Assembly: GCA_021108075.1 (NCBI GenBank)
Contig: JAIORP010000068.1
Span: 10,594-74,593 of the forward strand
Length of the DNA stretch: 64,000 nucleotides
Reading direction: 5' to 3'
Origin: Candidatus Omnitrophota bacterium
GTDB lineage: Bacteria > Omnitrophota > Gorgyraeia > Zapsychrales > Zapsychraceae
The translations under genes were made by a program, and so were the position numbers. Numbering within the stretch: position 1 is the first letter of the stretch; the number at the start of each line of letters is the position of its first letter. Positions 1,083 through 45,163 of the stretch are shown here, piece after piece. The notes under the pieces were generated by a model. That model made no database searches, had not been told where the DNA came from, and was given only the letters and a program-made list of their open reading frames with translations.

Positions 1083-1171
1083 ATACCGATTCACTGCATT
1101 AAATAATGACCAAAACCGATTCTGTTTTTCAGAATTAAAATAGAACAATTTATTAATGGATTTGGTATAAA
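1083..1171. repeat. MITE/REP-like palindromic intergenic repeat, copy A
   Basis: TACCGATTCACTGCATTAAATAATGACCAAAACC...AATTCTGtttttCAGAATT...ATTAATGGATTTGGTATA. Confidence 0.8.
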
Positions 1172-1339
1172 TGCCAGCGGTTTATTCTTAAATATATGGT
1201 GTGTATATACTTATGCCATATTAAGTCATTGACGGTATTTAAAAAAAAGAGGAACGGGGGGATCGTTCCGTCAAAAATATTTGTGATATAATGATCAACG
1301 AGAAAACGGTTTTAACCGTCCTACTTAAAGGTGAATTTA

Positions 1340-1981
1340 ATGATAGATCAGAACGAAAAAAAAGTTGTCATTTTTTTATTAATAACCATTTTATTGTTGG
1401 GAATGCTATGCTTATTTTTTAACGATCTTTTTTTCTTGATTTTAAGTGAGGATCATATTGTTGAGTCTATGACTTCAATCCTTTATCTTCTTAGTTCATG
1501 TTTTTTCCTTTTGCTGTTCCTGAAGTCGCGCAGAAAAATACATATAATTTTTTCTTTAATATTATTTATTTTTTGTCTTGAAGAGATAAGTTATGGCCAG
1601 AGGTTTTTTGGATATGAGACGCCTTTATTTATGTCTAAGATCAATGTCCAGGATGAAGTGAATATACACAATACAATATTTTTTAATTCTGAGATAATTT
1701 TTCATTTTTCTCTATTGGTATATTTTGTGTTTATTCCTTTGATGAATAGAAGCAGGATGAAGACTTTTTTTAAGAAAATTGGTTTGATTGTCCCGTCTAT
1801 TTATTATTCCCCTTTTATGGGTGTATTTTTTTCTTTATTATGGATTGATTATATGCTTGGTAAAATTAACATAGAGGAAATTTCTGAGCTTATCGTCAGT
1901 TTGTTGTTTTTTTTTACTGCCTATTTTTCTTTTCGCGGATCTCGCTTAGAATATAGCAAAATAAGGAAAAGCGAGGATTAA
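1340..1981 (+). CDS. hypothetical polytopic membrane protein (F/L/I-rich)
   Basis: Long ORF with an RBS-like AAAGGTGA 5 nt upstream of ATG 1340 (alternative GTG at 1331). Several hydrophobic segments. No recognisable family. Confidence 0.45.
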   Translation: MIDQNEKKVVIFLLITILLLGMLCLFFNDLFFLILSEDHIVESMTSILYLLSSCFFLLLFLKSRRKIHIIFSLILFIFCLEEISYGQRFFGYETPLFMSKINVQDEVNIHNTIFFNSEIIFHFSLLVYFVFIPLMNRSRMKTFFKKIGLIVPSIYYSPFMGVFFSLLWIDYMLGKINIEEISELIVSLLFFFTAYFSFRGSRLEYSKIRKSED

Positions 1982-2246
1982 TTGCGGTGTGAAACAGAAA
2001 GCTCAGGAGAAGATTCGTTGTTTAAGTCTGTGGATGACCATAGCCGGAGAAAAGACGAAATAACCAGTGTCTGTCCGTGTATACCCAAAGCGAAGAAAGA
2101 AATATCATTTTAAAAAATATTTAAGTCCCACGTCGAGCATCTTTTCGTGAGTGGTTTTTTGATTGTGGCAATATGTGATGATTAACATCCATAGCAAAGC
2201 GATATGGTGCGCGGATCGGCGTTTTGTTGAAAAATGAGAAATCCTG

Positions 2247-3377
2247 ATGGATAAAACAGTTCATATTTATCAAAATAAAGGATATGATATTGTGGACATT
2301 AAGAAGTCCCTTTATCACTATTTTGACCGCAAATTTCATTTTAATAATAAGAAGGTTTTACTTAAGCCGAATTTGCTGAAAGCCGCTGCTCCTGAGGCGC
2401 ATGTCACAACACATCCCATTCTCATAGAAGCCCTGGTTCAGTATATTCTGGATATGGGGGGCAAATGTGTGATCGGTGACAGCCCCGCCGGGTGGGGGAT
2501 CGCGCATGTGAAACACGTTGCGGATGTCACGGGCATGACGAACATCTGCGATAAATATAACATCGCGTTCAGTTATTTTGATGCCACTGAAATGCGGAAA
2601 ATGATCATTAAGACGGGCGTTGTGTTTAAAGAGATATTTGTCGCTGAGAATTATTTTGACTGTGATTATGTGATCAATGTGCCCAAACTCAAAACGCATT
2701 CGTTAACGGTTTTTACTCTGGGTGTTAAGAATATGCTCGGTGTTGTGCCTGGTTTACACAAGAAACTTTTTCATGAAAAAGGTCAAGACCCGAAACGCTT
2801 CGCGCAGGCCATATGCGACCTTTTTTCTGTTGTTCAGCCTAACGTAACGGTTTTAGATGGTATCATTGGAATGCATCGAAATGGTCCGGCCAATGGCGAC
2901 CCCATTCCTTTAGGGCGGATATTTATAAGTGAACAGACAAACGCCCTGGACGCGGTTGTCTGTCGCATGTGTGGTGTTGATCCGTTGCAGGTTCCGATTA
3001 CCCGGGCTGTTCATGAACGTGGAATAGGAGACATCCATAATATCCCTGTCCAGAAAGAATACAGCGACCATGATGACGCGTTCAAATCGTTTCAGTTGCA
3101 CAAAATATACAAATTGCGGACGAACCTTCCGGTTCAAGTTTTTTGTTGCCTTTTCGCCCTATTTAAATACAAGCCGAAGATCAATACAAGTGCTTGCACG
3201 AAATGCCACAAATGTGTCGTCATCTGCCCCACTGGAGCGTTATCTCGAACTGAATCCTACCCGCAATTGGATCTGGATAAATGTGTGCGTTGTTTTTGTT
3301 GCTGCGAAATCTGTCCGACAGGGGCAATGTCAGTCGATAAGAATTTTTTTGCGAAACTCGTTAATGAATATCAATGA
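2247..3377 (+). CDS. DUF362-like protein with C-terminal 2x[4Fe-4S] ferredoxin domain
   Basis: N-terminal region matches the DUF362 family pattern (KPNLL..., CVIGDSP). Two CxxCxxCxxxCP motifs are present: CTKCHKCVVICP and CVRCFCCCEICP. Confidence 0.7.
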   Translation: MDKTVHIYQNKGYDIVDIKKSLYHYFDRKFHFNNKKVLLKPNLLKAAAPEAHVTTHPILIEALVQYILDMGGKCVIGDSPAGWGIAHVKHVADVTGMTNICDKYNIAFSYFDATEMRKMIIKTGVVFKEIFVAENYFDCDYVINVPKLKTHSLTVFTLGVKNMLGVVPGLHKKLFHEKGQDPKRFAQAICDLFSVVQPNVTVLDGIIGMHRNGPANGDPIPLGRIFISEQTNALDAVVCRMCGVDPLQVPITRAVHERGIGDIHNIPVQKEYSDHDDAFKSFQLHKIYKLRTNLPVQVFCCLFALFKYKPKINTSACTKCHKCVVICPTGALSRTESYPQLDLDKCVRCFCCCEICPTGAMSVDKNFFAKLVNEYQ

Positions 3378-3517
3378 CAGTAAAATCAGATGGGAAAATG
3401 CCATTACCCGAGGCAGTGTTATGTGAACCACTTAGTAAGCTTTTTTAGGTAGCGACGGGGTTGTGTTGTTCATGGGGCACGTAATAGAACTTTTTATAAC
3501 GCTTGACAATTAATTTT

Positions 3518-3907: not shown

Positions 3908-4043
3908 ACAGTAACGGAAAAAATTTTTATGCCAACAAAGACTTGATTTAAAGCGGGATGATTTTGACGCTATCAAAAGAAGATGTTATTAATATTTTAG
4001 AAAGGATCAACACAGCCATACAAGAGCTTAACGAATAAAAGAC

Positions 4044-5468: not shown

Positions 5469-5543
5469 ATGCCAGAACAGTCAGAATGACTTTGATGATT
5501 ATTTAACAAAATTGGTATAAATCAGTAAAAAATATAACTTTTT

Positions 5544-6551
5544 ATGAGAAAATTAATTTTAGTCACAGGTGGAACGGGTTTTATCGGACGGCATTTAGTC
5601 CAAGCCCTGGTTAACGCGGGTAAAAGGATCCGATGCCTTGTCCTGCCTAATAGCGATATAACCGTTTTAAAAAAAATGAGCGTTGAGATTGTTTACGGCG
5701 ATGTTTTAGACCTCCGTTCATTACAAAAAGCTGTTGAGGGGGTCGAGATCGTCTATCACCTTGCAGCGTATGTGCGTCCGTACAGGAATTTTTACCAGTT
5801 GCATAAGTTTTCTGATAGTTTCGATGACGTGAATGTGTTAGGAACACAAAATTTGGCGGATGTGTGCTGTGAAAGTCATGTCCAACGTTTTATTTTTTAT
5901 AGCAGCATTGCTGTCGCCGGGTTAGGTGAAGGGCATACGGAAGCCTCGGTTTGTGAACCGATCACGACATACGGCCAGAGCAAGTTAAAGGCTGAAAAAT
6001 ATTTGATGGCGCTTTATGAATCCAAGAATTTTCCCGTGGTTATTCTTCGTCCAGGGCAGGTTTTCGGCCCTGCGAACATGCCTATGTTAACACTGTTTCG
6101 TTTTGTTAGAAGAGGGGTCCTACCATCTTTTGGCCCTGGAACAAACCGCATACCATTTTGTTTTGTTGATAATTTAATCCATGCGACTTTATCAGCCGAA
6201 AGTAAGGGGTCGATTGGGACACAGTACTACATTTTTGATGAACACCTGACCCTGCGCGGCTTTTCTCTTCTGATTGCTGAAGCGCTGGGTGTTCAATTGT
6301 CGCGCTTTTATATCCCTAAATATTTGGCGGTGCTTGGTATAACCCTGAAGGAACTGATTGAGAAAGTCATTCGGGTTCGCATTTGCCCGTTGAGGATGGA
6401 TATCAGCAGTGAAACGATCAAGATTGCCACGAATAATTGGACATTTTCTAATGAAAAGTCGATCAAAGAACTGGAATATCAATCACAGATTTCATTGAAG
6501 GAAGGAGTTGAGAAAACGGTGCAATGGTATCGTGAACGTGGTTATTTATGA
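5544..6551 (+). CDS. NAD-dependent epimerase/dehydratase (SDR family)
   Basis: Rossmann motif VTGGTGFIGRHL. Catalytic YGQSK (YxxxK). Confidence 0.85.
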   Translation: MRKLILVTGGTGFIGRHLVQALVNAGKRIRCLVLPNSDITVLKKMSVEIVYGDVLDLRSLQKAVEGVEIVYHLAAYVRPYRNFYQLHKFSDSFDDVNVLGTQNLADVCCESHVQRFIFYSSIAVAGLGEGHTEASVCEPITTYGQSKLKAEKYLMALYESKNFPVVILRPGQVFGPANMPMLTLFRFVRRGVLPSFGPGTNRIPFCFVDNLIHATLSAESKGSIGTQYYIFDEHLTLRGFSLLIAEALGVQLSRFYIPKYLAVLGITLKELIEKVIRVRICPLRMDISSETIKIATNNWTFSNEKSIKELEYQSQISLKEGVEKTVQWYRERGYL

Positions 6552-6734
6552 TGTGGAGATAGATTTTTTTAAATAAATTCGGATCAATACCTTTCCCCAC
6601 CCAGTATGATGGTGCTTGAATTCCCCGCAGATGAATTGGAATCAATGTGAAATTTTTTTTTTTTGAATCAGACATTTTAGTGATATATTAATATTTATGT
6701 CTTATAATAATATTTCTATTTATAACAGGTCAAT

Positions 6735-7730: not shown

Positions 7731-7748
7731 TTCTTTGCTGAGAAAGTT

Positions 7749-8588
7749 ATGGTTTACGATAAAAGCAGATCAGCCTCAAAAAAAATCAGTCTGTTGTATT
7801 CTGGCGGATGCGATTCAACTTTGTCTGCGTCCATCCTGGCTAAAGACTTCGAAGAAATTCATCTGGTAACTTTCAAGCATTATGCGACCTGGAATGTCGG
7901 AAGGTCCAGAATAAATGTTCAGAAGTTAAGGGTTGAAAACAAACAGGTCCGATTCATACATGTTTTTTTGAACACTTCCGGGTTGTTTTATAATATTCAG
8001 AAAGGATTTTTTAACGATCGCGCAATGTTGCCCTATTTTCCGTTATATATTTGTGGAGCCTGTAAGCTAGCCATGCATACGGATTTGATTTGTTATAATT
8101 TGGCCCATGATATCACTTTTGCCTCCAGTGGGGCTTCCCACGAAATGAGTATGTTTCCGGCGCAAACCGAGGGAGGGCTGAGCCATCTTGAGAAGTACTA
8201 TGCTGAATATGGCATGCAATTGATGAGTCCCGTCTACCGGAAGAAGAACGTTGATGTTGAGGCTATTGAAAAGGGTCTTCTCGAGCCCCGGCATCTAAAA
8301 AAAAAACATAAAGCAAGCTGGAATAAGTTATCAGATTTATATGTCCCTATAAAGAATGTTATTGATAATACTCAGGGATTTTGTTTTTGGATCGCGGCTG
8401 TTGATATTTATATCGCCCGGGAACAAAAGAAGAGCCGTCTTAGCCGGACACAACAAGTAAGTCGTGTATCAAAATTTTCACAGCAATATTATCAAAAAAA
8501 AATTGATGATATTTGTAGAAAATATATTGAATTAAGTCAAAAGAAGCAGAAGCGCAAACAAATTAATCATACCAAATTCATTGTTTAA
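7749..8588 (+). CDS. PP-loop ATP pyrophosphatase family protein (QueC/LarE-like)
   Basis: N-terminal SGGCDS PP-loop motif. Lys-rich C-terminal tail. Confidence 0.6.
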   Translation: MVYDKSRSASKKISLLYSGGCDSTLSASILAKDFEEIHLVTFKHYATWNVGRSRINVQKLRVENKQVRFIHVFLNTSGLFYNIQKGFFNDRAMLPYFPLYICGACKLAMHTDLICYNLAHDITFASSGASHEMSMFPAQTEGGLSHLEKYYAEYGMQLMSPVYRKKNVDVEAIEKGLLEPRHLKKKHKASWNKLSDLYVPIKNVIDNTQGFCFWIAAVDIYIAREQKKSRLSRTQQVSRVSKFSQQYYQKKIDDICRKYIELSQKKQKRKQINHTKFIV

Positions 8589-8597
8589 TGTTCTATT

Positions 8598-8673
8598 TCA
8601 ATTCTGATATTCTTGCTAAAGCGTCGAGAAAAGCAGAATTGATTTTGGTAATTATTTAATGGAATTGGTATCA
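8598..8673. repeat. MITE/REP-like repeat, copy D (variant with GCGTCGAGAAAAGCAGAATT core)
   Basis: ...GCGTCGAGAAAAGCAGAATTGATTTTGGTAATTATTTAATGGAATTGGTAT. Confidence 0.75.
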
Positions 8674-8685
8674 ACAGGAAAATAG

Positions 8686-25396: not shown

Positions 25397-25482
25397 AATA
25401 CCAATTCCATTAAATAATGACCAAAACCAATTCTGCTTTTCAGAATTAAAATAGAACAATTTATTAATGGATTTGGTATAAA
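25397..25482. repeat. MITE/REP-like repeat, copy B
   Basis: ATACCAATTCCATTAAATAATGACCAAAACCAATTCTGCTTTTCAGAATT...TTAATGGATTTGGTATA. Confidence 0.85.
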
Positions 25483-30924: not shown

Positions 30925-32088
30925 ATGAATAAATATCGAAAAGAAATCGTTTTGTTTTTTCTGGTGCTTTCTTTTTGTTTGAGGTTTGCCGTTGCCTCTG
31001 AAGCTGAGTTGACCTTTGATGAAAATTACTGGATCGGTTATGTTAAGCATTGTTCCGTCGAAGATGGGAAGATCAATTTTGTCTGGCATGGCTCAGGCCA
31101 TCCGGCCTTAGCCGTTTATCTGATCAAACTCAGCACGGTCATTTTTGGAGAAAGCGTGCTCGGCCATCGCTTGATGAACCTGTACGCGGGTGTTTTAACG
31201 GTTTGGATGTTGTATCTCATATCCATGCGGTGGTTTGGTTTCGGCGCGGCGGTGTGGACGCTTATTTTAGCGACCTTTAATGAATACCTGATCGGTATTT
31301 CAGCGATTGCCACGGCAAAAAGTTATTATTTTTTATTCGCTTCGGCGGGAATCTATTTGTTTTATCGGGGATTAGAAGAGAAGAGTAAACAAAAAATCTA
31401 TGGGAGCGGTTTTTTTGTCGGGCTGGCCTTTTTGAGCAGTGAAATATCCGCTTTATTGATCGTGGCCTTTGCTCTGTTCTTGTTGTGTTCGAAATACCGG
31501 TTCTGGTTTAAGCGCAAAGAGATTTATTTTGCCGCGTTGATTTTTTTCGTCGTGATATCGCCGGACATTTGCTTTAACATTACCAATCAAACGCCGGACC
31601 ATGATGGTTTGGTGAATTATTTGGATCACTTCAAACGCATCGGGCGGATTGGTTTCAGCATTCATCCCTTTGCCTTTTATTTTAGCGATTTCTATAATGG
31701 CCTTTTAACCCCCAGGGGGCTATGGGAAAACATGTCTCCGGAATATCCGGCGCCCAATGGCTTTTGGGGTTTTCTTTGCTTCGCGGGGACAATTTTCGCG
31801 TTATTTGTTAAGAAACAACCGCTGGAAAAGATTTTGCTGATCATTTTTTTTCTTGTGTTCGGTATTCTGCTGTTTTTAACATGGGTTCCGGATGATCCTG
31901 TTTGGGAAGCAGGTTTGGTTAAAGTTGAATGGGTTTGGTGCGCGATTACCCTGATCCCGGCGCTTTTGCTGACAGCCCATAAGATCGCTCAGATAAAGGA
32001 GCGCCATTCATGGTTGTATTTCTTTATCATTTTATTTGTGATGACTGCTGTCTATAAAACTTTCATGAGTGTGAGCGCCTGGCAATAA
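30925..32088 (+). CDS. polytopic membrane protein, GT-C (ArnT/PMT-like) glycosyltransferase-like
   Basis: Multi-TM protein with N-terminal pattern reminiscent of GT39/GT83 enzymes. Weak call. Confidence 0.4.
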   Translation: MNKYRKEIVLFFLVLSFCLRFAVASEAELTFDENYWIGYVKHCSVEDGKINFVWHGSGHPALAVYLIKLSTVIFGESVLGHRLMNLYAGVLTVWMLYLISMRWFGFGAAVWTLILATFNEYLIGISAIATAKSYYFLFASAGIYLFYRGLEEKSKQKIYGSGFFVGLAFLSSEISALLIVAFALFLLCSKYRFWFKRKEIYFAALIFFVVISPDICFNITNQTPDHDGLVNYLDHFKRIGRIGFSIHPFAFYFSDFYNGLLTPRGLWENMSPEYPAPNGFWGFLCFAGTIFALFVKKQPLEKILLIIFFLVFGILLFLTWVPDDPVWEAGLVKVEWVWCAITLIPALLLTAHKIAQIKERHSWLYFFIILFVMTAVYKTFMSVSAWQ

Positions 32089-32089
32089 T

Positions 32090-32192
32090 GCCAATCACAT
32101 TAAATAATTCTTCTGATTTCTCATCGCTATTTGCGTAAAAGCGTTCGCAAAAAACGACGGAATAAAACAATTCATTAATGGATTTGGTATCA
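32090..32192. repeat. MITE/REP-like repeat, degenerate copy G
   Basis: CACATTAAATAATTC...GCGTAAAAGCGTTCGC...CATTAATGGATTTGGTAT. Confidence 0.55.
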
Positions 32193-34925: not shown

Positions 34926-35936
34926 ATGAGTCAAGTTTTTAAACCCAAAATTGCGATTGTAGGGTCCGGGGCAGTGGGGAGTGTTATCGGTGGTTTGCTG
35001 GCACGGGAGGGAGAAAACGCGACTCTCATTGCCCGTAAAGCACACGTCGAGACTATTAATAAAAATGGATTATTTATTGATGGAATATTGGGTTCGTTCT
35101 CTGTTCATGTCCAGGCAAAAGAAGAGCTCACATTCAGACCGGACCTGGTGCTTCTCACAGTAAAGGCGCAGGATGTGGAATCTGTGTGTAGGCAAATAAA
35201 GCCATATATCACTGATGTGCCGGTTGTAACCCTGCAGAACGGGATCAGAAGTGAAGAAATGGCGGCTTCTTTGCTGGGGGAAAAGAATATCATCCGTGGT
35301 GTTGTTCTCTTCAACGCGCAGTTCCTAAAATCCGGGTGCGTGACATATGGCGAGAAGGGTTCTTTGCTATTGGGGGAGGCGTTTCGACAGAATGGAAGAC
35401 GTGTTGCTGATATTGCGGGTATTCTCAGGCGAGCCATCAAGACAGAAGTCAGTGACAATATTTACGGGGTACGTTGGACAAAATTGCTTGTAAGGGTTAT
35501 GGTAAATAGCCTGGAAGCAATGACGGGATTGAGCTTCAAAGAGTGTATGAGATATCCCGGAATGAGGCGGATTGGTATGTTTATCCTGAGGGAGGCATTT
35601 GAGGTCGTCGAAAAGGCAGGTGTCAAACTAGAGCCGCTACCCGGCTTGCCTCTAACCGTTTTCAAACTTATCATCAAATCACCGTTGGTCATAGCCTCAC
35701 TGGCGTTGAGACTGAGGATGAGCTCCACAGACACAATTACATCCACTCTGCAGAGTATGCGCAGAGGCCGGCCTACCGAAATCAATTATCTCAACGGTGA
35801 AATAGTGATACAGGGGAGGGCGGTGAACATTTCAACCCCGTATAACTTGAAGGCAGTAGAATTGGTTCATGCCGTAGAGCGAACAGGCCGATTTTGTTCG
35901 CCATTACATTTAGAAAGTCAGTTTTTGAGCGGGTGA
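34926..35936 (+). CDS. panE: 2-dehydropantoate 2-reductase (ketopantoate reductase, PanE/ApbA family)
   Basis: IAIVGSGAVGS N-terminus. KLLVRVMVNSLEA and EINYLNGEIV family blocks. Confidence 0.7.
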   Translation: MSQVFKPKIAIVGSGAVGSVIGGLLAREGENATLIARKAHVETINKNGLFIDGILGSFSVHVQAKEELTFRPDLVLLTVKAQDVESVCRQIKPYITDVPVVTLQNGIRSEEMAASLLGEKNIIRGVVLFNAQFLKSGCVTYGEKGSLLLGEAFRQNGRRVADIAGILRRAIKTEVSDNIYGVRWTKLLVRVMVNSLEAMTGLSFKECMRYPGMRRIGMFILREAFEVVEKAGVKLEPLPGLPLTVFKLIIKSPLVIASLALRLRMSSTDTITSTLQSMRRGRPTEINYLNGEIVIQGRAVNISTPYNLKAVELVHAVERTGRFCSPLHLESQFLSG

Positions 35937-36011
35937 ACAAGTTGCGGGAACGGAGTAGACGTCGATGAGGACGCGTTCCATATCAAATCCACTTATGAAT
36001 TGTTTTATCTT

Positions 36012-36062
36012 AATTCTGAAAAGCAGAATGGGGTTTGGTCATTATTTAATGGAATTGGTATA
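36012..36062. repeat. MITE/REP-like repeat, half copy F
   Basis: AATTCTGAAAAGCAGAATGGGGTTTGGTCATTATTTAATGGAATTGGTATA. Confidence 0.7.
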
Positions 36063-36147
36063 AGCGGAGGGTTTAGCTTTCCGGTCGGCGATCATTGTCA
36101 GGATATGCTATAATTAAAAAAAGCCCTATAAATCATTCAACTGAGAT

Positions 36148-36468
36148 ATGACGCGAATGCTGATACTGACATTGTTTCTTATTTATTTTTTATCATTGAT
36201 TGTAACGACCAGCTTGATGACCCTGGTGTATAAACCATCGTTTGTGCCTGCGGTAGAATTTATTGAAGTGTCCGGCATACAGTTTTGGAGCGCCATTTTG
36301 GCCTTCCTGTTGACGCTCATTGTTTGCAAAATTTTTGTAATATTGAAATTTAAGCTGTTTCGTTCTCCTGTCGATAAGCCCCCTGATTTTTACGAATCAA
36401 TTTATGTGCGCAGAGTGCGCAAAGAAATGGAGAGTCTGACCAAAGGGTTGGACAATAATAAAAAATAG
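36148..36468 (+). CDS. small hypothetical membrane protein
   Basis: Two hydrophobic helices. Weak. Confidence 0.35.
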   Translation: MTRMLILTLFLIYFLSLIVTTSLMTLVYKPSFVPAVEFIEVSGIQFWSAILAFLLTLIVCKIFVILKFKLFRSPVDKPPDFYESIYVRRVRKEMESLTKGLDNNKK

Positions 36469-36671
36469 TCCGTCCCCGGACTTTTAATCTGCTCCGGTCA
36501 ATTTTTCGGATGTGTTGGCTATTTTCAAGGCCACCTTTAATATTAATAGACATACTAATCTATTTTTTAATAGCTCAGCAGGGTTCCGGGTTAATAATTA
36601 AATTTGTTAATATTAAATAAATGTTTTATACTAAAAAAGCGTTTTCTTATTAATATATAAATACTTTTAAT

Positions 36672-39600
36672 ATGTGGAATTTTATTCAAAATAAGAAATA
36701 TTATGTTTATAAGCAAATCACTGCGTTATGCATTGCTGTATCCTTTTTTGGATCAACAATATTCCCGGTTCCTTTAGCTCAAGCTCAGAGTGTGCCTGCA
36801 ACGGTTGGTCTGGATCTTCCAACCCCTGGGACAATGGTAACATTAAGCCCTGGATTTATACCCGCCGTTATTAAAGGCGTAAAAATTTTTCCTAATCAAC
36901 CTCTAAGATTTGATTTTATCGTTGACCCGGGAGACTCCGGGTTAAAAGGGACTGGTTTAAAAAGTGAAGCCAACAAACTCATTAAATATTTTCTCGCGGC
37001 AATAACTGTTCCCGAAGATGATATGTGGGTTAATCTTTCCCCATACGAGAAAGACAGAATAATTGCGGAAGGTTTTGGGAAGACTGAGATGGGGCGAGAT
37101 CTACTCGCGCAGGACTATATCTTAAAACAAATCACAGCATCCCTTATGTTTCCTGAAGAAGAAATTGGAAATGAATTCTGGGATAAGGTCTATCAAAAGG
37201 CGGTTGATTTATATGGCACGTCAGAGATCCCGGTTAATACATTTAATAAGGTGTGGATTATTCCAGAAAAAGCTATTGTTTATGAAAATGGCGATACTGT
37301 CTTTGTCTCAGAAAGTCATTTAAAGGTAATGCTCGAGGAGGATTATCTCGCGCTTGAGTATAATTCATTGAATAGTGAAAATGGTACTGACCAGATTAAT
37401 AAAAATGACGTGGAGCAACCGGATGATGTTTCCTCCTCTATCATAAGAGAAATTATTATTCCCGAATTAGAAAAAGAAGTGAATACAGGAAAGAATTTCG
37501 CGAATTTAAGACAGATTTTTAATTCTGTGATTTTGGCTACCTGGTTCAAACGGAATCTTAAAGAAAGTTTGTTAGGCAAAGTTTACATGGATCAAAACAA
37601 GGTCGAGGGTGTTAACACAGAAGATCGTCAGGTTAACGAAAAAATTTATCAGCAATATTTAGAGGCTTTCAAAGTTGGTGTATATGATTTTATTAAGGAA
37701 GATTATGACACAACAACACAAGAAGTTATTCCTCGAAAATATTTTTCAGGAGGAGCTCTTTTAGCTTTAAAAAATGCCTATAGGAAAAGGGACACGTCGG
37801 AAGGGGTTGCTGTAAGTGAAGACAGTATTGTTGCAGGTGTCCAGTTGGTTGCCGCCCCTCATAGTTATGCTAATAGAGCGGTTAGAGAGACAGGTGAGCT
37901 TCCGGATGTTTCTAATTTAGACGATTATAGGAACAATTTACCACAGGAAGTAATGGATGGCGTAAGACGATTTTTGCGTAGTGAGAAAGGATTAGAAGTA
38001 GACGAGAAGTTTATGCGTAATATTCCCATAATTTCAAGACCTGGATATTTATCAAAGTACGGTGAATTTGGACATGTTGGTCTGGGGGAGATGTATGGTG
38101 AAATAGTGATTTATCTGGATTCGGAATCTTTTGAAAATATAACGAGATTAGCCCATGAAATTGCTGAGGCCTTTAATTTCGAATCAGGTAGAAGGGACCT
38201 TTATGTGTCCAGTGAATTTATTACACAGCTCAGAGAATTTGTGGGAGAGTATGCTACAGAGTTAGAGAGCATTGGCCGCAATGGTCAGGACGCTATACAG
38301 AAATTTGAAGCTCATCTTAAAAATACTCCCGGAAAATCATTCGAGCCATGGATGATGCGTTGGTGGATCTGGGCTACTTCAGAAGGAAAAGAATTTGCTG
38401 ATCGTTCACATGATCTATCTCCCTCACTTGCTGAGGAATACGAAATAGCCGCTCAGGCGGGAAAGCTTCCAACGGGATTAAGGTTCACACCAACCCAATT
38501 AGATCAAGTCGATCGTAATGTAGCGGCAGGTAATAAAAGCCGCCAATTTTTAACACTGGATGATGTAAAAATCAGGGACAAACGGGTTCTAATTAGACTT
38601 GATATAAACGCGCCTGTTAGTGATGGAAAAATCAAACCAACGGAAAGGATTACAGCTTCATCAGAAACGATTAGAGAGGCGGCTGAAAGTGGAGCTAAAG
38701 TCGCTATTATCGCTCATCAAGGACGGCCGGGAGATGATGATTACATGGAATCGTTGGATCAGCACGCACAATTACTTTCAGAAAAGATAGGTCGCCCCGT
38801 TAGAGCAATAAATGATTTATACGGAGAAGAAGCACAGGAAGCGATCCGATCATTACAAAGTGGTGAAGTAATCATTCTGGGCAATGTTAGGCCAAAAGAA
38901 AAAGATCCAGAATTTGTGGCAAATCTTGAACCTTTATTTGACTTTTTTATATTTGATGGTTTTTCTGTCGCTCACAGGGATACAAATAGTGTTACAGGAT
39001 TTAAAAATATTCCAAACGTTGCCGGACGATTAATGGAAAGAGAGTTAGACGGAAATCAACGGTTTTTGACTGCCCTTGAGCATCCTTACGTGGAGTTATT
39101 GGGGGGGGCTAAGATTAGTGATCACGTAGACGCGTTAGATTATGGTTTAGAGCAGGGACTTATTGATCGTGTGCTTACCGGAGGCATGTTAGGTCAGTTG
39201 TTATTGCTTATTGATGGTTACCAATTAGGTGAGCCTACTATGAAGGTTTTGCGTGAGCAGGATGTGGATGAATCCCGACCGGAAGGTCTTTTAAGTTTAA
39301 TTCCACGAATTAGAGATATTTATGAAAGACACCGGGACAAATTTGAGTCACCCTCTGATCTCGCTTATGAAGATGCTGACGGTGAGAGACAGGAAATCGC
39401 GATTACTGATTTAGGTGAGGATGGCGCACCATTTGTCATTGGTGACAATGGGACAGAAACTGCTAACCGATACGCGGATATTTTAAGAGAAGCGAAGACA
39501 GGATTTGTGAAAGGTCCTCAGGGCAATTACAAGAATGATAATTTCAAAAAAAGTTCAGAGATTACTTTTGGAGCACTCGCGGATTCGGGGGCTTTCTGGA

Positions 39601-40043
39601 TGACAGGTGGTGGTGACACTGATCAATTAATTTCTGATTTAAAGCTTCAACCAAGCCATCGCACACTCGCGGGTGGCGCTTTTTTAAAATTTAAATCGGG
39701 AAAAGAACTTCCGGCGATAAGTCGTTTAGCTGAATCGAGAAAGCAACAAGGCGTTGGAGAAACAGATGGAGGTGACCGCGCGGTTTTAACTTCCGTGGCC
39801 AGTCCCGGTGGTATTGATTTTAATCCTAAAAATTTTGATATTCAATCTGAAGGGAAAGGGATGGATATCGACTTTGCCTTTGATCCGGCAAATTTTGAGA
39901 CAATGCCCGTAAATGGATTTATACCCGTTATTTTTCAAATCTCTCCGATTTCAAATTTCCCTTCATTATTGTTGGGTGTATCAGATCAAGAAGAAAAGCA
40001 GCAACTCACTCAACTCAAAAATTATACCAATTCCATCAAATAA
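36672..40043 (+). CDS. giant signal-peptide protein with paralog-shared N-cap and C-tail and an embedded full-length phosphoglycerate kinase-like domain
   Basis: Signal peptide ...PVPLAQAQS. The N-cap (about aa 40-330) is shared with 40150. About aa 630-1030 align end to end with PGK: KRVLIRLDINAPV..GKI, AHQGRPG, FDGFSVAHR, LLGGAKISD, TGGM, GGGDT, AGGAFL. Confidence 0.85.
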   Translation: MWNFIQNKKYYVYKQITALCIAVSFFGSTIFPVPLAQAQSVPATVGLDLPTPGTMVTLSPGFIPAVIKGVKIFPNQPLRFDFIVDPGDSGLKGTGLKSEANKLIKYFLAAITVPEDDMWVNLSPYEKDRIIAEGFGKTEMGRDLLAQDYILKQITASLMFPEEEIGNEFWDKVYQKAVDLYGTSEIPVNTFNKVWIIPEKAIVYENGDTVFVSESHLKVMLEEDYLALEYNSLNSENGTDQINKNDVEQPDDVSSSIIREIIIPELEKEVNTGKNFANLRQIFNSVILATWFKRNLKESLLGKVYMDQNKVEGVNTEDRQVNEKIYQQYLEAFKVGVYDFIKEDYDTTTQEVIPRKYFSGGALLALKNAYRKRDTSEGVAVSEDSIVAGVQLVAAPHSYANRAVRETGELPDVSNLDDYRNNLPQEVMDGVRRFLRSEKGLEVDEKFMRNIPIISRPGYLSKYGEFGHVGLGEMYGEIVIYLDSESFENITRLAHEIAEAFNFESGRRDLYVSSEFITQLREFVGEYATELESIGRNGQDAIQKFEAHLKNTPGKSFEPWMMRWWIWATSEGKEFADRSHDLSPSLAEEYEIAAQAGKLPTGLRFTPTQLDQVDRNVAAGNKSRQFLTLDDVKIRDKRVLIRLDINAPVSDGKIKPTERITASSETIREAAESGAKVAIIAHQGRPGDDDYMESLDQHAQLLSEKIGRPVRAINDLYGEEAQEAIRSLQSGEVIILGNVRPKEKDPEFVANLEPLFDFFIFDGFSVAHRDTNSVTGFKNIPNVAGRLMERELDGNQRFLTALEHPYVELLGGAKISDHVDALDYGLEQGLIDRVLTGGMLGQLLLLIDGYQLGEPTMKVLREQDVDESRPEGLLSLIPRIRDIYERHRDKFESPSDLAYEDADGERQEIAITDLGEDGAPFVIGDNGTETANRYADILREAKTGFVKGPQGNYKNDNFKKSSEITFGALADSGAFWMTGGGDTDQLISDLKLQPSHRTLAGGAFLKFKSGKELPAISRLAESRKQQGVGETDGGDRAVLTSVASPGGIDFNPKNFDIQSEGKGMDIDFAFDPANFETMPVNGFIPVIFQISPISNFPSLLLGVSDQEEKQQLTQLKNYTNSIK

Positions 40044-40132
40044 TGACCAAAGTCATAATGATATTCTCGCTAAATCGTCGAGAAAAGCAGAATTGGGTTT
40101 GGTCATTATTTGATGGAATTGGTATTAGTATA
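40021..40132. repeat. MITE/REP-like repeat, full palindromic copy E, overlapping the stop of the 36672 gene
   Basis: ATACCAATTCCATCAAATAATGACCAAA...GTCGAGAAAAGCAGAATT...TTTGGTCATTATTTGATGGAATTGGTAT is a perfect 28-bp terminal inverted repeat. Confidence 0.85.
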
Positions 40133-40149
40133 AATTGTGAGGATTTTTT

Positions 40150-43100
40150 GTGCGCGCAAAGAAACCGAACCGTTGTTTTGCTTTTTTAATGATCCTGGCT
40201 TTCGGGGTCAATGGCCTCATGCCGTATGCCTACGCGCGAACACCGCTCAGCTTACCTGAACCCGGGGTGATGGTTTCGACCAGTCCGGCGTTTGTGCCGG
40301 TCTTAATCCGGGGCATGACCCTCCATCCCAAAGACCCGTTCCGCCTGGATTTTATTATGGATAGCGGGAATACCGGCCTAGAAAATGACGCGATGAAAGA
40401 AGAGTCACAAAAACTGATCAAATATTTTCTCGCCTCAATGACAATCCCGCAAAACCATTTATGGGTCAACCTTTCGCCTTATGAAGGCGATAAAATCATT
40501 CCACCCTCTTTGGGCCGGACCATGCTGGGCCGTGACCTGCTGGCTCAGGATTATCTCCTGAAACAATTAACCGCGACGCTGATGTACCCGGAAGAAGGAT
40601 TGGGCCAGGAATTTTGGGAAAGGATTTACCGCCAGGCAAAGGAGAAATTCGGAACAACCGACCTGCCGGTGAACACGTTTAACAAGGTTTGGATTTTGCC
40701 GCAGAGCGCGGATGTCTATGAGCATGGCCGGACGGTTTATATTGTGGACAGCCGACTGAAGGTCATGCTGGACAGCGATTACCAGGCCATGATGACAGGC
40801 CATGAGACAATTAAAAATGACGCGATGATGGAATTAGGGGAAACGATGATCCGTGAGGTTATTCTTCCCGAGATTGAAAGAGAAGTGAATGAAGGCAAGA
40901 ATTTCGCGCCCTTACGGCAGATTTACCATTCCTTGATTTTAGCGAAGTGGTATAAAGAAACGATCAAGGAAAGCATCCTGTCTCTGTCTTACGTGGACCA
41001 GCATAAAGTGAACGGCATTGAATGGAACGACCCGGCGTTTAAGGACCGGATCTATGCCCGATATATGCGGGCGTATCAAAAAGGTGTTTTTAATTATATC
41101 AAAGAAGATTATGACCGCTTAAGCCAGGAATTGATCCCCCGCAAATATTTTTCCGGCGGTTTTCAGGACCGGGCCATCGCCTTCAACCGGCCGCGGATTG
41201 CCAGAGAAGATATCAAACCCGTCGGTGATTATGCCATGTTGTCTGTGTCTTTGGACCAGGTGCCCTTGATTACCGTCAGGCAGGCGGGCTTGACAGGGGG
41301 GTATAAAGTCTCAGGGGCCATAGAACTGGATGAGCAAAAACAAATGCTTTCGTTTGAGGGACTGCGCGATGAGAAGTCTGTTTCTGAAAGGGTCGAACTG
41401 CTCATTCAAAAACGCTTGACAAAAAGAGACGTGCTGGACAAAATCAGCCGTTACGCCGGGCATGAAATGATTGACGCGATGATCGCCTGGTTTATGGATG
41501 AGTCGACCATGAACGATATTGTTATTCTTCAACCGAACGCCCTGGGTGTTCACACGGTTTTTGACGTGCGCGTGCTGGCTGTTTCAGAAAATTTTGAAGA
41601 CGAAGGTCTTGTTTTTCTGCATGAAATCGGCCTGGCCATGGGACAAACCGCGGATTTAAACACGGTCCTGGAGGTCGTTGATGATAAAACCACAACACAT
41701 CCGCTCAAATTATCACCCGATAAAATTGTTCAGGACTATCTCGAGGATAAAGCGTGGTACGACCGGCATGTGCAGGTGACAGACAAGCAGGGCGTGAAAC
41801 TGCACTATGCTTTGCGGGCATTGTTCCGTGAACAGTTTTTTCTGGACGATATGGACCTGACGCACCGGATCAAAGTGGCTTTTGAATTTGCTGATGAGAA
41901 GTTGCGCGCGGATGGCGAAGATGTGGACCAGGAAAAACTTTTACAGGAATTAACGGATAAATACAATCGAATCAGCGCGGCCAAATGGGGAGAGAATCAA
42001 AGACAATCCTCGTGGTTTTTAAGGCTGCGGGATGCTAAAGAACGGGTTCTCGCGGCAAGAGACATTTCCTCCTCGCGGGTCGTTGATGAGATCCTCAGTT
42101 TTTATCTCAAGGCCACAGATCCTCAAGAGCCGGTTGAGCGCTATGAACCTTTTAATGCCTTTATCTCGACGACGTTTCAAGGGCGGAAACGGGAAGTGCT
42201 GGTGCCTGTTGTTAAGGAATTATATGGGATGATCATGTATGACAGCGTCTATGTCGACCAGAGAGTCCTATTAATATCGTTGATGTCAAATATTATGGCG
42301 GGTATATTTGAACTGGACCAGTCCATCGTGTCTGGGTTTGAAGTGCTTCTCTTGCGGGATATCCGGCGGTTTGTTTCCGATGAGGTTTTTGTCGCGCCCC
42401 ATCAAGTTAAGGGTATTGATCATTTAGAACGGTATTTTAAAATTGTGCCCGGAAAAGAGTCGTTTCGGACAGTCGTTCAAAAGGCGGCCTTTAGATTGCT
42501 GGGACGACAGCCGTCTGTATTGAGCGTGCCGCAACCGAGGTTGTATTTCCGTGAAGATTTTTTTAAAAAAGTCAGGGAGCAAAGAGATGTGGCTATAAAA
42601 AAACACTTGATCCGGGCGCATAAACAGGCGCATTTGTTTAGAAACGCTATTCGGTCTTTGAGCAACAGTCTGGTCGCGCGTGAGCGGGTCGGCACCCGGC
42701 GGCGCAAATTTACGCTCAGGGAAAACGCGGGTCTGCACATGGATGGATTGTTGCGTCAATTTCAGGAGACGAAAGACGCGGGGAAAAAGGTGTTTTTGGC
42801 AGAGCTTTTATTCTCGTGGTCGGGTTCAGGGCATGAATTTTGGAACAAAGGTAATGCCGGGACCTATCTGGAAGACCTGATGAAATTATTGCCTCAAACA
42901 AAAACAGTCATGCAGAAAAGATCTCTCTTGCAGCAGGCCTTAGGGTTGCCGGTGATGACGATGGAACGGTCCTTGCGGCAGCGCTTTGTCGACTTTGTGT
43001 CCGGGGAACTGGCCGGATTGTTTTCTAAGGTGACGGAATTGGGCGTCGACATTGACCAGGATTTTCAGGACCTGGACGAACGTTATCCGGATGGTTATGA

Positions 43101-44934
43101 TCCTTTAAAAGATAAAGGGCTGGATGATAAGGTTTATGAGCAGCACAATTTGATGGTTGACATTCATCTGCGGATGTGGATATTGACAAAACTGGCGTTA
43201 GAGGGCATGAAGAGCCCGGACACGTCCTCAATCGGTCATGGCATCATACAAAATTTATGGGAGAGCGTTAATAACAGGCCATGGGACAAGAATATCAAAT
43301 CGATGATGATGACACATTTGGAGCCGTTTATTGTTCAAGGCGGATTTGTTTCCGATCGAAGCTTCGCGTCCGTGGTTCGTCCGTCGGATGAATTTTTTTC
43401 TGAGTTAAAGCGTGCCGGGTATCTGAATTGGAATGGGATGATCACGAATCAATTTGTGCGCTTAAAAAGTTCAGCGGAAATGGACCTGCCCGAAAAATAC
43501 CGGGATTTGAAAGAGAGCATTTATCAGGTATTTCAAGAGGCCTTAGACCGGTCAAATCCCGCTGTTGATTCTGCGTTCGCGGAATTGAAATCCCGGATCG
43601 ACCCGGGGCTGGTGAACACGGTGGAACGCGTTGTTTACGGCCGGGCGGAAGAATTTTCGGACGCCATTGTTTCTATTCTGGAGCAAAATGTCCTCAATGA
43701 TAATGTGACTTTTTTTATTTTAATGCGTCATAGTATGGACGAGCAATTGCTCGAAAGAATCGTTTTTAATGAGAATATCCGGATCGAAACCCGGCTGTAT
43801 GCCGCTTCCTGGCTTTTTCCGTCGATGACAACCGGGCGGGCCGCGCGATTGGTTGAGAGCCTCGCGGATGAAACAGAAGCGTTCATCCGCCGGACGATCA
43901 GAGATAATAACCGGGTCCGGTCTTTATTTGATAATGAGCTTTTACAGGATGAAGAAATCAAGGTTTACATGTTAGGCATGCTGATTGACACGCGGCGGCA
44001 TTTAACCCCGATGTCGATGAAGGCTTTTATCTCCATCTCCCGACGGATCCGTTCGGCCGAGGCCTTCGCGTATTTAAACAACGCGAACGCTTATTTCACG
44101 TTCGGGGGGAAGATTTTAGCCGGAACAACAGAACCGGCGGCATTGTTTTATGAAATTCTGAGCCACGAAATATTGCACGCCATTTTGCAAGAGGAACACG
44201 GTTACCGCGGCCAGACGCTCAAAGATTTCACGTTGGAGGAAATGTTGTCTGACATCCACAGTTATATGTTCGCCGACCGGATGGGCATCGAAGATAGTTA
44301 CCGCATTGACGCGGCCAAAATCGATAATTTTTTCAAGGCCGTTAAAGGGAATGATTATTTTACGGTAGAGAGCCATGAGGGCGCGCGGGCCCAGCTGAAA
44401 ATTTTGATAGAACGCCTGGAGGAACTCGGGATCAGTCTACATTGGCAGACGCTGTTAAGGATCGGTATCGCGATGATCCGGGATCCTCTGGTGCGGGAGC
44501 GGTCTCTGGAAGAGACGGTCTCCATCTGGGTTAAGACCGCGTTTTTCGAGCGGCATGGTTTCGCCCGGGTCAAACACAATGAGTTTTATCAGCGTTTTTT
44601 TGATGCCCCGGCGAGCAGTGACGCCGATAAGGATAGAATAAAGATTCTGGACGGCGAGGGCGTTGATAGGGCATTGGACCAGGACAGGGCGATGCTTCCG
44701 GGCGAGGAAGAGGTCGGAGGGATAGACCTGCAGGGCATTGACGTGAACCGTCAGGGCGAGGGGTTTGAGATTCAATTTGATCCGGCATCATTCCGGCAAA
44801 ACGGGGGTCAGGGCATCAACGGGCTTACGCCTGTCATTATCAATGTCACGCCCATTCAGAATATCCTGCCGCTGCTCGGCCTGGGGTCGGACAATGTGTC
44901 TGGATCGCTGGAGCTTTCGCAAAGCAGGGATTAG
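40150..44934 (+). CDS. giant signal-peptide protein, paralog of 36672 (shared N-cap and C-tail), core contains an HExxH motif
   Basis: GTG start after AGGA. Signal peptide ...AYARTP. N-cap similar to 36672 (LIKYFLA, WVNLSPYE, GRDLLAQDY, PVNTFNKVWI). HEILH near aa 1340. C-tail is similar. Confidence 0.85.
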   Translation: MRAKKPNRCFAFLMILAFGVNGLMPYAYARTPLSLPEPGVMVSTSPAFVPVLIRGMTLHPKDPFRLDFIMDSGNTGLENDAMKEESQKLIKYFLASMTIPQNHLWVNLSPYEGDKIIPPSLGRTMLGRDLLAQDYLLKQLTATLMYPEEGLGQEFWERIYRQAKEKFGTTDLPVNTFNKVWILPQSADVYEHGRTVYIVDSRLKVMLDSDYQAMMTGHETIKNDAMMELGETMIREVILPEIEREVNEGKNFAPLRQIYHSLILAKWYKETIKESILSLSYVDQHKVNGIEWNDPAFKDRIYARYMRAYQKGVFNYIKEDYDRLSQELIPRKYFSGGFQDRAIAFNRPRIAREDIKPVGDYAMLSVSLDQVPLITVRQAGLTGGYKVSGAIELDEQKQMLSFEGLRDEKSVSERVELLIQKRLTKRDVLDKISRYAGHEMIDAMIAWFMDESTMNDIVILQPNALGVHTVFDVRVLAVSENFEDEGLVFLHEIGLAMGQTADLNTVLEVVDDKTTTHPLKLSPDKIVQDYLEDKAWYDRHVQVTDKQGVKLHYALRALFREQFFLDDMDLTHRIKVAFEFADEKLRADGEDVDQEKLLQELTDKYNRISAAKWGENQRQSSWFLRLRDAKERVLAARDISSSRVVDEILSFYLKATDPQEPVERYEPFNAFISTTFQGRKREVLVPVVKELYGMIMYDSVYVDQRVLLISLMSNIMAGIFELDQSIVSGFEVLLLRDIRRFVSDEVFVAPHQVKGIDHLERYFKIVPGKESFRTVVQKAAFRLLGRQPSVLSVPQPRLYFREDFFKKVREQRDVAIKKHLIRAHKQAHLFRNAIRSLSNSLVARERVGTRRRKFTLRENAGLHMDGLLRQFQETKDAGKKVFLAELLFSWSGSGHEFWNKGNAGTYLEDLMKLLPQTKTVMQKRSLLQQALGLPVMTMERSLRQRFVDFVSGELAGLFSKVTELGVDIDQDFQDLDERYPDGYDPLKDKGLDDKVYEQHNLMVDIHLRMWILTKLALEGMKSPDTSSIGHGIIQNLWESVNNRPWDKNIKSMMMTHLEPFIVQGGFVSDRSFASVVRPSDEFFSELKRAGYLNWNGMITNQFVRLKSSAEMDLPEKYRDLKESIYQVFQEALDRSNPAVDSAFAELKSRIDPGLVNTVERVVYGRAEEFSDAIVSILEQNVLNDNVTFFILMRHSMDEQLLERIVFNENIRIETRLYAASWLFPSMTTGRAARLVESLADETEAFIRRTIRDNNRVRSLFDNELLQDEEIKVYMLGMLIDTRRHLTPMSMKAFISISRRIRSAEAFAYLNNANAYFTFGGKILAGTTEPAALFYEILSHEILHAILQEEHGYRGQTLKDFTLEEMLSDIHSYMFADRMGIEDSYRIDAAKIDNFFKAVKGNDYFTVESHEGARAQLKILIERLEELGISLHWQTLLRIGIAMIRDPLVRERSLEETVSIWVKTAFFERHGFARVKHNEFYQRFFDAPASSDADKDRIKILDGEGVDRALDQDRAMLPGEEEVGGIDLQGIDVNRQGEGFEIQFDPASFRQNGGQGINGLTPVIINVTPIQNILPLLGLGSDNVSGSLELSQSRD

Positions 44935-45080
44935 CCTTCCGTTATAGCGTTCATTTTTGTGTTTATACATGTATTGTTGCTAAGTTCTATCCTCTGGTCG
45001 GGAACGGATACACGGACAGGGAAAATTTTTTTGACGGCAGGGAAAAAAGGGTTTACTTGGAGTGTTTTTTATGTATAATA

Positions 45081-45163
45081 ATACCAATTCCATTAAATAA
45101 TGACCAAAATCAATTCTGCTTTTCAGAATTAAGATAGAACAATTTATTAATGGATTTGGTATT
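45081..45163. repeat. MITE/REP-like repeat, copy C
   Basis: ATACCAATTCCATTAAATAATGACCAAAATCAATTCTGCTTTTCAGAATT...TTAATGGATTTGGTAT. Confidence 0.85.

Follow-up and report, generated by a model that had tools for sequence, protein, structure and literature searches.

IS630-type insertion sequences are ordinary bacterial genome parasites, whose canonical target duplication is TA. The RUP repeat of Streptococcus pneumoniae is an IS630-derived MITE, linked to IS630-Spn1. Duplication of a 3-bp T-N-A trinucleotide (TAA/TTA) typifies PIF/Harbinger elements and certain IS5 subgroups, and REP elements possess neither a target duplication nor IS-like 21-bp terminal repeats. Within the IS630-Tc1-mariner group, the fungal Fot/pogo elements produce TAA rather than TA duplications (PMC7386202).

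The window (the whole stretch analysed here, 64 kb of Omnitrophota DNA) contains a family of small repeats that are very probably MITEs mobilised by an IS630-type transposase, that is, non-coding units of 80–103 bp whose only functional parts would be two ends of ~21 bp. As RUP, they are ~100 bp, non-coding, palindromic, intergenic and multicopy, with ends copied from an IS630 and movement supplied in trans; unlike RUP and canonical IS630, with their TA duplication, they are associated with a 3-bp T-N-A duplication, with unrelated ends (TACCAATTCC...) and with an uncultured Omnitrophica host. Cultured IS630 relatives with TACCAAT...ATTGGTA termini (ends TACCAATC...GATTGGTA) occur on Aeromonas, Citrobacter and Enterobacter plasmids and in Spartinivicinus ruber pA; in complete records of these four genera, the T-N-A duplication is perfect, as here, in 7/7 independent insertions (TGA in four, TAA in two, TCA in one). 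Their DDE_3 transposases, in some cases encoded in two frames, are 40–46% identical to the type cognate to our repeats; these elements are autonomous and not MITEs, and their ends diverge from that of the MITE past the first 7–8 bp. Fot/pogo elements differ in being eukaryotic, in belonging to another clade with DDxD spacing, and in having much longer repeats and ends without sequence similarity. Tourist MITEs, PIF-Harbinger and the T-N-A IS5 subgroups offer likewise small, non-coding, TAA- or TTA-flanked elements, with a partner transposase of a different family. The Correia (Neisseria) and ERIC/REP repeats are also intergenic palindromes (~100–150 bp) which can be co-transcribed, alter gene ends and carry possible promoter-like sequences; however, their ends are different, their target duplication is different or lacking, and they are tied to no known transposase or to another one.

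Anatomy, placement and distribution of the repeats

Repeat ends were located by an exhaustive mismatch scan. The 28-nt left end, at ≤3 mismatches, matched the window six times (none expected from 100 shuffles), the right-end 25-mer four times (none expected) and the hairpin core five times (0.35 expected). With counts so far above chance the family is real, and comprises seven copies and one solo end in the window (Table 1). The sequence-only reading had recognised the seven copies; two of the starts it gave, 8598 and 36012, belong to elements at 8570-8670 and 35981-36060 (copies 2 and 5), and the solo end had escaped it.

Table 1. Repeats in the window and full-length IS630-type elements compared with them
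Feature	Position	Strand	Length and form	Flanks	Ends and other details
MITE copy 1	1084..1167	+	84 bp, short form	TAA (1081-1083), TAA (1168-1170)	4-nt insertion in left inverted repeat
Solo terminal repeat	5498..5517	-	truncated copy	TAA follows	TACCAATTTTGTTAAATAAT, 3 mismatches
MITE copy 2	8570..8670	-	101 bp, long form	TCA/TCA	central hairpin
MITE copy 3	25399..25478	+	80 bp, short form	TAA/TAA	
MITE copy 4	32089..32189	-	101 bp, divergent	TAA and TCA	central hairpin altered to TTGCG...CGCAA
MITE copy 5	35981..36060	-	80 bp, short form		right end degenerate
MITE copy 6	40025..40124	-	100 bp, long form	TTA/TTA	left end on both sides
MITE copy 7	45082..45161	+	80 bp, short form	TAA and TTA	tRNA-Asp 80 nt downstream
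Window IS630 element	46092-47277			TA/TA	ends TAGATAGTTTCATGAAATTTGC; gene 46160-47167
Partner IS in metagenome stretch L061	199-1342		1144 bp	TAA/TAA	ends TACCAATCCCATTAAATAATTCCC / ...GGAATTGGTA
Partner IS in L077, second copy					end TACCAATTCCATTAAATAATGACCTAAAT; protein 84% identical to that of L061
Partner IS in L137-L142			1141 bp	TTA/TTA at different sites	left end TACCAATTCCATTAAATAATTACGG
Aeromonas/Citrobacter/Enterobacter plasmid IS630-family element	e.g. NZ_AP014939.1 121852-122878		1103 bp		WP_176453593.1

The elements are delimited by TACCAATTCC...GGAATTGGTA and bounded by imperfect terminal inverted repeats of ~20–21 bp, TACCAATTCCATTAAATAAT(T/G). A perfect 28-bp terminal palindrome had been ascribed to a copy E; the 28-nt sequence does occur at both ends of one copy, which is the sixth and the only such case, with an inverted repeat perfect over 27–28 bp. 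All other copies combine the left end with a divergent right end, TACCAAATCCATTAATAAATTG; the inverted repeat in common is therefore ~20–21 bp and imperfect. The two internal cores formerly distinguished reduce to one, the 80-bp form corresponding to the 101-bp form without 21 nt in its centre. Most positions of the terminal 20–21 bp are conserved in at least 90% of 43 aligned long-form copies, and the ends agree between the window copies and those of 124 other stretches of genomic or metagenomic DNA. Coding capacity is nil: the copies span 80–103 bp, no ORF is listed in them, and the terminal repeat holds TAA in two frames. Short-form copies show 83–98% mutual identity, which argues against a very recent burst.

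Every copy lies between genes or at the 3' end of a gene. The gene at 7749-8588 stops at a TAA within copy 2, and the next gene begins 15 nt past the element; the gene at 36672-40043 stops at a TAA internal to copy 6, gaining six codons; and the left TAA of copy 4 is the stop codon of the gene at 30925-32088. The solo end likewise lies in a spacer between genes and precedes an ATG at 5544 by 26 nt.

The family extends beyond the window: three further copies lie in the 8.7 kb that follow it on this contig, and related copies occur in 41 stretches of genomes and 83 of metagenomes. The 21-bp end is nearly invariant across distant phyla, and the same ends enclose unrelated interiors in Bdellovibrionales, Paraglaciecola and Omnitrophota. 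The exact end had no match in viral contigs, the element no meaningful match in plasmids, and the end sequence no occurrence in the literature searched. Logan contigs were observed to terminate exactly at copies.

Exact-protein look-ups found all copy sites filled in the 4–6 samples carrying the organism, with no clean presence/absence polymorphism among them and one deletion polymorphism, at copy 5. In other samples this locus still holds a right-end remnant, a 93-nt spacer and a full copy; copy 5 is the product of a deletion between the older remnant and the full copy. The only empty site seen is an orthologous 38-nt spacer in a distant relative (59% protein identity), whose lack of the element points to insertion rather than ancestral sequence.

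RNA structure of the copies and the question of a host role

The hairpins might primarily be host elements (terminators, mRNA-stability or RNase-processing signals) whose mobility is irrelevant or long past, a view that we consider improbable. In its favor are the location of each copy between genes or at a gene 3' end, RNA folds of the intact copies far more stable than those of shuffles (z from -4 to -11.8, the extreme being copy 6 at -52.6 kcal/mol), and a central hairpin, TCTCG-N9-CGAGA, that 43 distinct copies of several origins share, with slight covariation at column pair 41-67 (UA, AU, UG, GC); the left end and the duplication also form an outward promoter-like site (TGGTCA-17-TATAAT or TATTAT). 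However, this conserved hairpin is absent from the commonest form in this genome, complementarity between the ends is needed for transposase binding anyway, most pairs of the structure are invariant or vary on one side only, and the target duplications and coding partners described below show that the copies spread by transposition. The option of transcription terminators, raised in the sequence-only reading, has to be abandoned: none of the 15 terminator-like sites at 35900-45350 overlaps the three copies there, no T run after a GC-rich stem was visible to the eye in the other copies, and the copies lie in both orientations (three plus, four minus, the near-symmetric copy 6 being counted as minus) against uniformly plus-strand genes. 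In the copies, AT-rich stems lead into A-rich sequence.

For the 43 copies, RNAalifold predicted the terminal stem only, and the central hairpin, drawn by hand, is mostly conserved and not covarying; thus, no selected RNA structure is claimed. The hairpin is nevertheless well conserved in the 103-bp form, does not derive from the ends of the parent elements, and is unaccounted for by a purely selfish model. Against Rfam 15, no copy reached the gathering threshold, which only tRNA-Asp passed; in E-value mode, copy 6 gave sub-threshold matches to plant-miRNA hairpins (~32 bits, with thresholds of 90–100), which are generic long-hairpin similarity.

Target duplication and full-length elements with the same ends

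Examination of the flanks for a target-site duplication, as had been suggested, revealed 3-bp direct T-N-A repeats, mostly TAA or TTA. Among 98 non-redundant paired elements, the identical flanks measure 3 bp in 63, 2 bp in three and 4 bp in one; T occupies position -3 and A position -1 in 92–93 of the 98, with no constraint at positions -4 and +4. Across sides, the middle base is concordant (A/A 25, T/T 34, A/T 8, T/A 2; Fisher p = 1.6e-9). Matching flanks are lacking in about a third of the 98, as would be expected from decay and recombination. The duplication is perfect in seven of the ten full copies of the contig (four TAA, two TTA, one TCA). This 3-bp duplication, in which a TA core is retained, departs from the TA of the IS630 group, and the IS630 assignment therefore rests on the protein and not on the duplication; the partner is accordingly filed as a variant IS630 subgroup rather than as canonical IS630. 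Our literature search for bacterial IS630 elements with a 3-bp duplication returned only the fungal Fot/pogo case.

An autonomous partner was found in metagenome contigs, and none within the 72.7 kb read from this genome. The full-length partner is a 1.14-kb IS with the same 21-bp ends, the same T-N-A duplication and a 349-aa IS630-family transposase. In L061, this ORF reaches 216.5 bits with the NF033545 model "IS630 family transposase", whose cut-off is 100, and 93.5 bits with Pfam DDE_3; it also matches HTH_33 and HTH_32. The L077 end agrees with the left end of the window MITE at 26 of 28 positions, and the transposase of L137-L142 carries the NCBI label Omnitrophica. Neither the 64-kb window nor the 8.7 kb that follow it yielded a cognate transposase; among the first 41 genome loci, no pair of ends was more than 300 bp apart and no repeated segment exceeded 300 bp, and the solo ends of Paraglaciecola and of a gammaproteobacterial MAG have housekeeping genes, and no transposases, as neighbors. 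The cognate transposase is presumably, or was formerly, present in this particular genome, and from the transposase family we infer cut-and-paste transposition.

The statement that no transposase is associated with the repeats was misleading, as the window holds an IS630-family gene ~1 kb from copy 7, albeit of another lineage. That the element carrying it moves the MITEs is very unlikely, despite this proximity, its membership of the same broad family (221 bits against NF033545) and a TT(T/C)CAT(G/T)AAAT stretch that its inverted repeat has in common with the MITE end. The protein shares only 23% identity with the cognate type, the ends of the element differ from the MITE ends conserved over the 43 long-form copies, and the element is flanked by TA on both sides, with no matching trinucleotide; it is probably not the MITE partner, and was discarded as a candidate on these three grounds. 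An IS5-family or PIF/Harbinger-type mobiliser, initially proposed from the T-N-A duplication that it would fit, was dropped once the full-length elements proved to be of IS630 type, and is now scarcely credible: every full-length element found with these ends encodes a DDE_3/NF033545 protein, not DDE_Tnp_1 or DDE_Tnp_4, and the annotated IS630 relatives with TACCAAT ends also duplicate T-N-A in 7/7 insertions. Virtually no weight is left for REP/REPIN elements with a RAYT (tyrosine) transposase, which are likewise palindromic, intergenic and multicopy, or for simple local duplications, since the repeats have both the target duplication and the 21-bp terminal repeats that REP elements lack (the earlier label "REP-like" being wrong in the strict sense, as REP makes no such duplication), no IS200/RAYT-type domain appears among 16 window proteins scanned against Pfam, and unrelated flanks in unrelated genomes exclude local duplication.

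Proposed mechanism and implications

Consistent ends, a target-site duplication, the non-coding nature of many dispersed copies and full-length IS with the same ends bear out the earlier suggestion of non-autonomous transposable elements. In an IS630-driven MITE family, the ends would be bound and cut by a DDE transposase belonging to one IS630 (Tc1/mariner-related) subgroup, supplied in trans by the full-length 1.1-kb IS. The transposase would excise the element and insert it into a T-N-A target, most often TAA or TTA, and repair of the staggered cut would leave this trinucleotide duplicated on both sides. T-N-A covers two stop codons, TAA and TGA, and is frequent in spacers rich in AT; copies would therefore accumulate at gene 3' ends and between genes. 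Insertion into a TAA stop codon would restore the stop (copy 4), and insertion a few bases before the stop would replace the last codons and let the gene end at the TAA of the repeat (copies 2 and 6). The 80-bp form is probably a deletion derivative of the 101–103-bp form and has become the commonest here, and copies also serve as recombination substrates (copy 5).

A broader proposal, which we regard as doubtful, is that the TACCAAT-ended IS630 subgroup is a distinct T-N-A-duplicating lineage and, linked to this, that the central hairpin TCTCG-N9-CGAGA has a function of its own. If true, the choice of T-N-A would let this subgroup land in stop codons and regenerate them, which would explain both its high density in the compact genomes of at least four phyla and the repeated origin from it of MITE families whose interiors are unrelated; the hairpin of the ~103-bp Omnitrophota family would serve either the spread of the element or the host, for instance in RNA processing or protein binding.

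Nothing here overturns current understanding. In practice, copies break short-read assemblies, change the C-terminus of at least two proteins, of 1123 aa and 279 aa, provide or restore stop codons, and drive small deletions between strains; their recognition averts mis-annotation in Omnitrophota and related metagenome-assembled genomes. The data also describe a subgroup of IS630 that has TACCAAT termini, duplicates 3 bp (T-N-A) and has given rise to several mutually unrelated families of MITEs, in Omnitrophota, Bdellovibrionales and Paraglaciecola, and thus provide a natural data set on the origin of MITEs and on the minimal end needed by a Tc1/mariner-type transposase.

Copies in the window and their anatomy

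Reading the sequence directly, together with an exhaustive mismatch scan of the window, gave seven full copies of the small non-coding repeat (MITE) and one solo end. The 28-nt end of the sequence-only reading, ATACCAATTCCATYAAATAATGACCAAA, has six window matches at up to three mismatches, against none in 100 dinucleotide-preserving shuffles; the opposite end, AACAATTTATTAATGGATTTGGTAT, has four against 0 expected, and the hairpin core, AATTCTGCTTTTC, five against 0.35 expected. The proposed family of at least seven copies therefore stands far above the shuffle expectation; copies 2 and 5 start elsewhere than had been proposed. Exact protein matches assign the window to contig NODE_2_length_168659 of ENA assembly ERZ26872899, the proteins of which carry the NCBI label "MAG: Candidatus Omnitrophica bacterium". 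Nor are the copies confined to the window, the outcome that reading had named as speaking against a family: three more lie within the next 8.7 kb of the contig (10 full copies per 72.7 kb of source genome, window plus 8.7 kb beyond), and related ends occur in other lineages. Copies are also the exact end points of short-read contigs from the same organism, as expected of dispersed repeats.

MITE copies and other features of the window
Feature	Position	Remark
MITE copy 1	1084-1167	
Solo MITE end	5498-5517	overlooked by the sequence-only reading
MITE copy 2	8570-8670	8598 in the sequence-only reading
MITE copy 3	25399-25478	
MITE copy 4	32089-32189	divergent
MITE copy 5	35981-36060	36012 in the sequence-only reading
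MITE copy 6	40025-40124	28-nt sequence at both ends
MITE copy 7	45082-45161	
Second repeat, three copies	45346-45704, 49877-50289, 52032-52454	first begins directly after tRNA-Asp
Similar stretches of about 90 nt	45900-46000, 47340-47440	by eye
IS630 insertion sequence	46092-47277	gene 46160-47167, 335 aa
ORC/CDC6-like ATPase	47610-49661	
FkbM methyltransferase	50304-51635	
TIR_2-domain protein	52656-53669	
HamA-domain protein	53814-54641	
DEAD/ResIII helicase	54638-58003	1121 aa, overlaps preceding gene

The perfect 28-bp palindrome announced as "copy E" exists, but only in copy 6, sixth in that reading's own order; the remaining copies pair the left end with a diverged right end, so that all copies share an inverted repeat of only about 20-21 bp. 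The two alternative cores proposed earlier are in fact a single one, the 80-bp form being the 101-bp form less a 21-nt central segment. Flank alignment delimits the element proper as TACC...GGTA, bracketed by a direct trinucleotide repeat.

The T-N-A target duplication

Target-site duplications, which had been proposed as a check on the family, are present and measure 3 bp (T-N-A, N being any base). When the window and all fetched loci were pooled and duplicates removed, 98 paired elements were obtained, with identical flanks of 3 bp in 63, 2 bp in three and 4 bp in one. T occupies position -3 and A position -1 in 92-93 of the 98, positions -4 and +4 being without constraint. The middle bases match across the two flanks as A/A (25), T/T (34), G/G (3) and C/C (1), discordant pairs including A/T (8) and T/A (2), a concordance with a Fisher p of 1.6e-9. 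Such a correlation is what duplication predicts, and neither a mere target preference nor a TA duplication predicts it. Perfect duplications flank seven of the 10 full copies of the source genome (TAA four times, TTA twice, TCA once).

Elements can be as short as 46 bp, as in the "minimal" ones of two fetched loci (L054 10478-10523; L075 1796-1841), in which two perfect facing 20-nt ends are separated by 6 bp. In three others (L004, L005, L014; e.g., L014 1157-1363), tandem MITEs have shared or overlapping duplications (GGTA-TTAA-TACC), which suggests frequent insertion into the T-N-A regenerated beside a copy. Separately, a 212-bp MITE (L024 3459-3670) encloses a different perfect palindrome, GTGTCATTGCGAGTATGCAAT...ATTGCATACTCGCAATGACAC, a second repeat family nested in the first.

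The closest annotated relatives of the partner transposase on complete records of cultured bacteria (40-46% protein identity) have the termini TACCAATC...GATTGGTA. Seven insertions were inspected, six of them independent events of a single 1103-bp element (Aeromonas, Citrobacter, Enterobacter) and one of a Spartinivicinus element, and all seven duplications are perfect (TGA, TCA, TAA, TAA, TGA, TGA, TGA). A TACCAAT-ended IS630 subgroup thus duplicates T-N-A, and not the TA canonical for IS630. Outside ISfinder, the literature search returned no description of a bacterial IS630 with this duplication; TAA duplications have been reported for the fungal Fot/pogo elements of the same superfamily (PMC7386202).

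Full-length partners and distribution

An IS5 or Harbinger-type partner, the initial guess from the 3-bp duplication, proved wrong, as the full-length elements found with these ends encode an IS630-family transposase. The route to these elements was a scan of metagenome contigs with the 20-nt end (83 stretches); the end sequence of the MITE and partner type is TACCAATTCCATTAAATAAT. In one stretch, L061, an end pair 1144 bp apart with TAA/TAA flanks encloses a 349-aa ORF (Pfam DDE_3, HTH_33 and HTH_32) scoring 216 bits against the NCBIfam "IS630 family transposase" (cut-off 100). A second full-length copy (L077) encodes a protein 84% identical to it, and its end, TACCAATTCCATTAAATAATGACCTAAAT, matches the window MITE left end at 26 of 28 positions. 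Furthermore, a 1141-bp element with a transposase labelled Omnitrophica (L137-L142; left end TACCAATTCCATTAAATAATTACGG) has TTA/TTA flanks at different sites. An autonomous IS with the same inverted repeats, likewise proposed as a check, has accordingly been found in these metagenome contigs. The transposase clade is large (over 120 clusters with at least 64% identity), Omnitrophica and Bacteroidia MAGs are among its named sources, and most members are on 1.1-2 kb contigs, as expected of repeats. No cognate transposase gene was seen in the 72.7 kb of source genome; repeat contigs that would hold such genes are commonly lost from genome bins. Several related IS630 copies, with ends TACCATTTCCAAAAATTAATTCG and TTA/TTA flanks, are also found in an IS-rich stretch of a 2.4-Mb contig (L143, ERZ25072076), together with IS5-type and IS110-type genes.

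The window does carry a transposase gene, contrary to the earlier statement that none is associated, within a complete IS630 insertion sequence. It has 38-nt imperfect inverted repeats, ends that differ from those of the MITEs (TAGATAGTTTCATGAAATTTGC) and TA/TA flanks, and its protein shares only 23% identity with the partner type; it is a separate lineage and probably not the MITE partner. The similar stretches on its two sides may belong to a larger repeat unit that received it. A second, unrelated repeat (about 360-420 bp, 87-89% identical) occurs three times nearby, each time upstream of a gene (the ATPase, the methyltransferase and the TIR-domain protein), and the arrangement resembles an island at the tRNA gene with repeated upstream modules. 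The stretch 52656-58003 is a probable anti-phage defence cluster, whose HamA-domain protein and helicase resemble a Hachiman-type pair.

The same 21-bp end surrounds unrelated interiors in several lineages: Bdellovibrionales MAGs (MITEs of 81, ~140 and ~178 bp), cultured Paraglaciecola (elements of 177 and 263 bp), and two further MAGs, one of Omnitrophota and one labelled Planctomycetales (the ~103-bp family, including the window copies). The Bdellovibrionales subterminal sequences match elements of the L061 type and of the type of another transposase, P0128. Genes neighbouring the copies are housekeeping in every case examined; viral contigs gave no match and plasmids no meaningful one.

RNA-level readings and effects on the host genome

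Intact copies fold much better than shuffles (z from -4 to -11.8), which is accounted for by the inverted repeats themselves. The central hairpin TCTCG-N9-CGAGA shows good conservation and little covariation (43 distinct 103-bp-family copies), was not found near parent-element ends and is deleted in the commonest window form; Rfam returned no family at threshold. The transcription-terminator option fares poorly, since no terminator-like site overlaps the three copies in the scanned stretch and copies occur in both orientations, while the window genes are all on the plus strand (G+C ~41%). The left end and the duplication form an outward promoter-like site, by consensus match only.

The copies do lie between genes, as the sequence-only reading held, but three of the seven touch a gene 3' end: the stop codon of gene 30925-32088 is the TAA duplication of copy 4, and genes 7749-8588 and 36672-40043 now stop at a TAA within the repeat. 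The latter gene encodes a 1123-aa protein in which a long N-terminal region precedes a complete phosphoglycerate kinase domain (residues 629-1011); the N-terminal region and the start of its 1594-aa neighbour (40150-44934) have 67-68% DNA identity to MITE-adjacent genes in two other loci (L017, from an Omnitrophota MAG, and L028). Copy 5 is a recombinant. At its site, other samples (L050 2560-2743, L051 1283-1478) have an older right-end remnant, a 93-nt spacer and a complete MITE; this interval is missing from the window strain, where its deletion joined the remnant to the full copy. In a relative with 59% protein identity, a 38-nt spacer without the element occupies the orthologous junction, which points to insertion in this lineage.

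Of the options raised earlier, non-autonomous transposable elements is the one borne out by the consistent ends, the target duplication and the full-length partners elsewhere, and on this sequence evidence we regard the repeats as a true MITE family belonging to an IS630 subgroup, modestly unusual in duplicating 3 bp of the form T-N-A and in having a 21-bp end that is widely spread yet nearly invariant.
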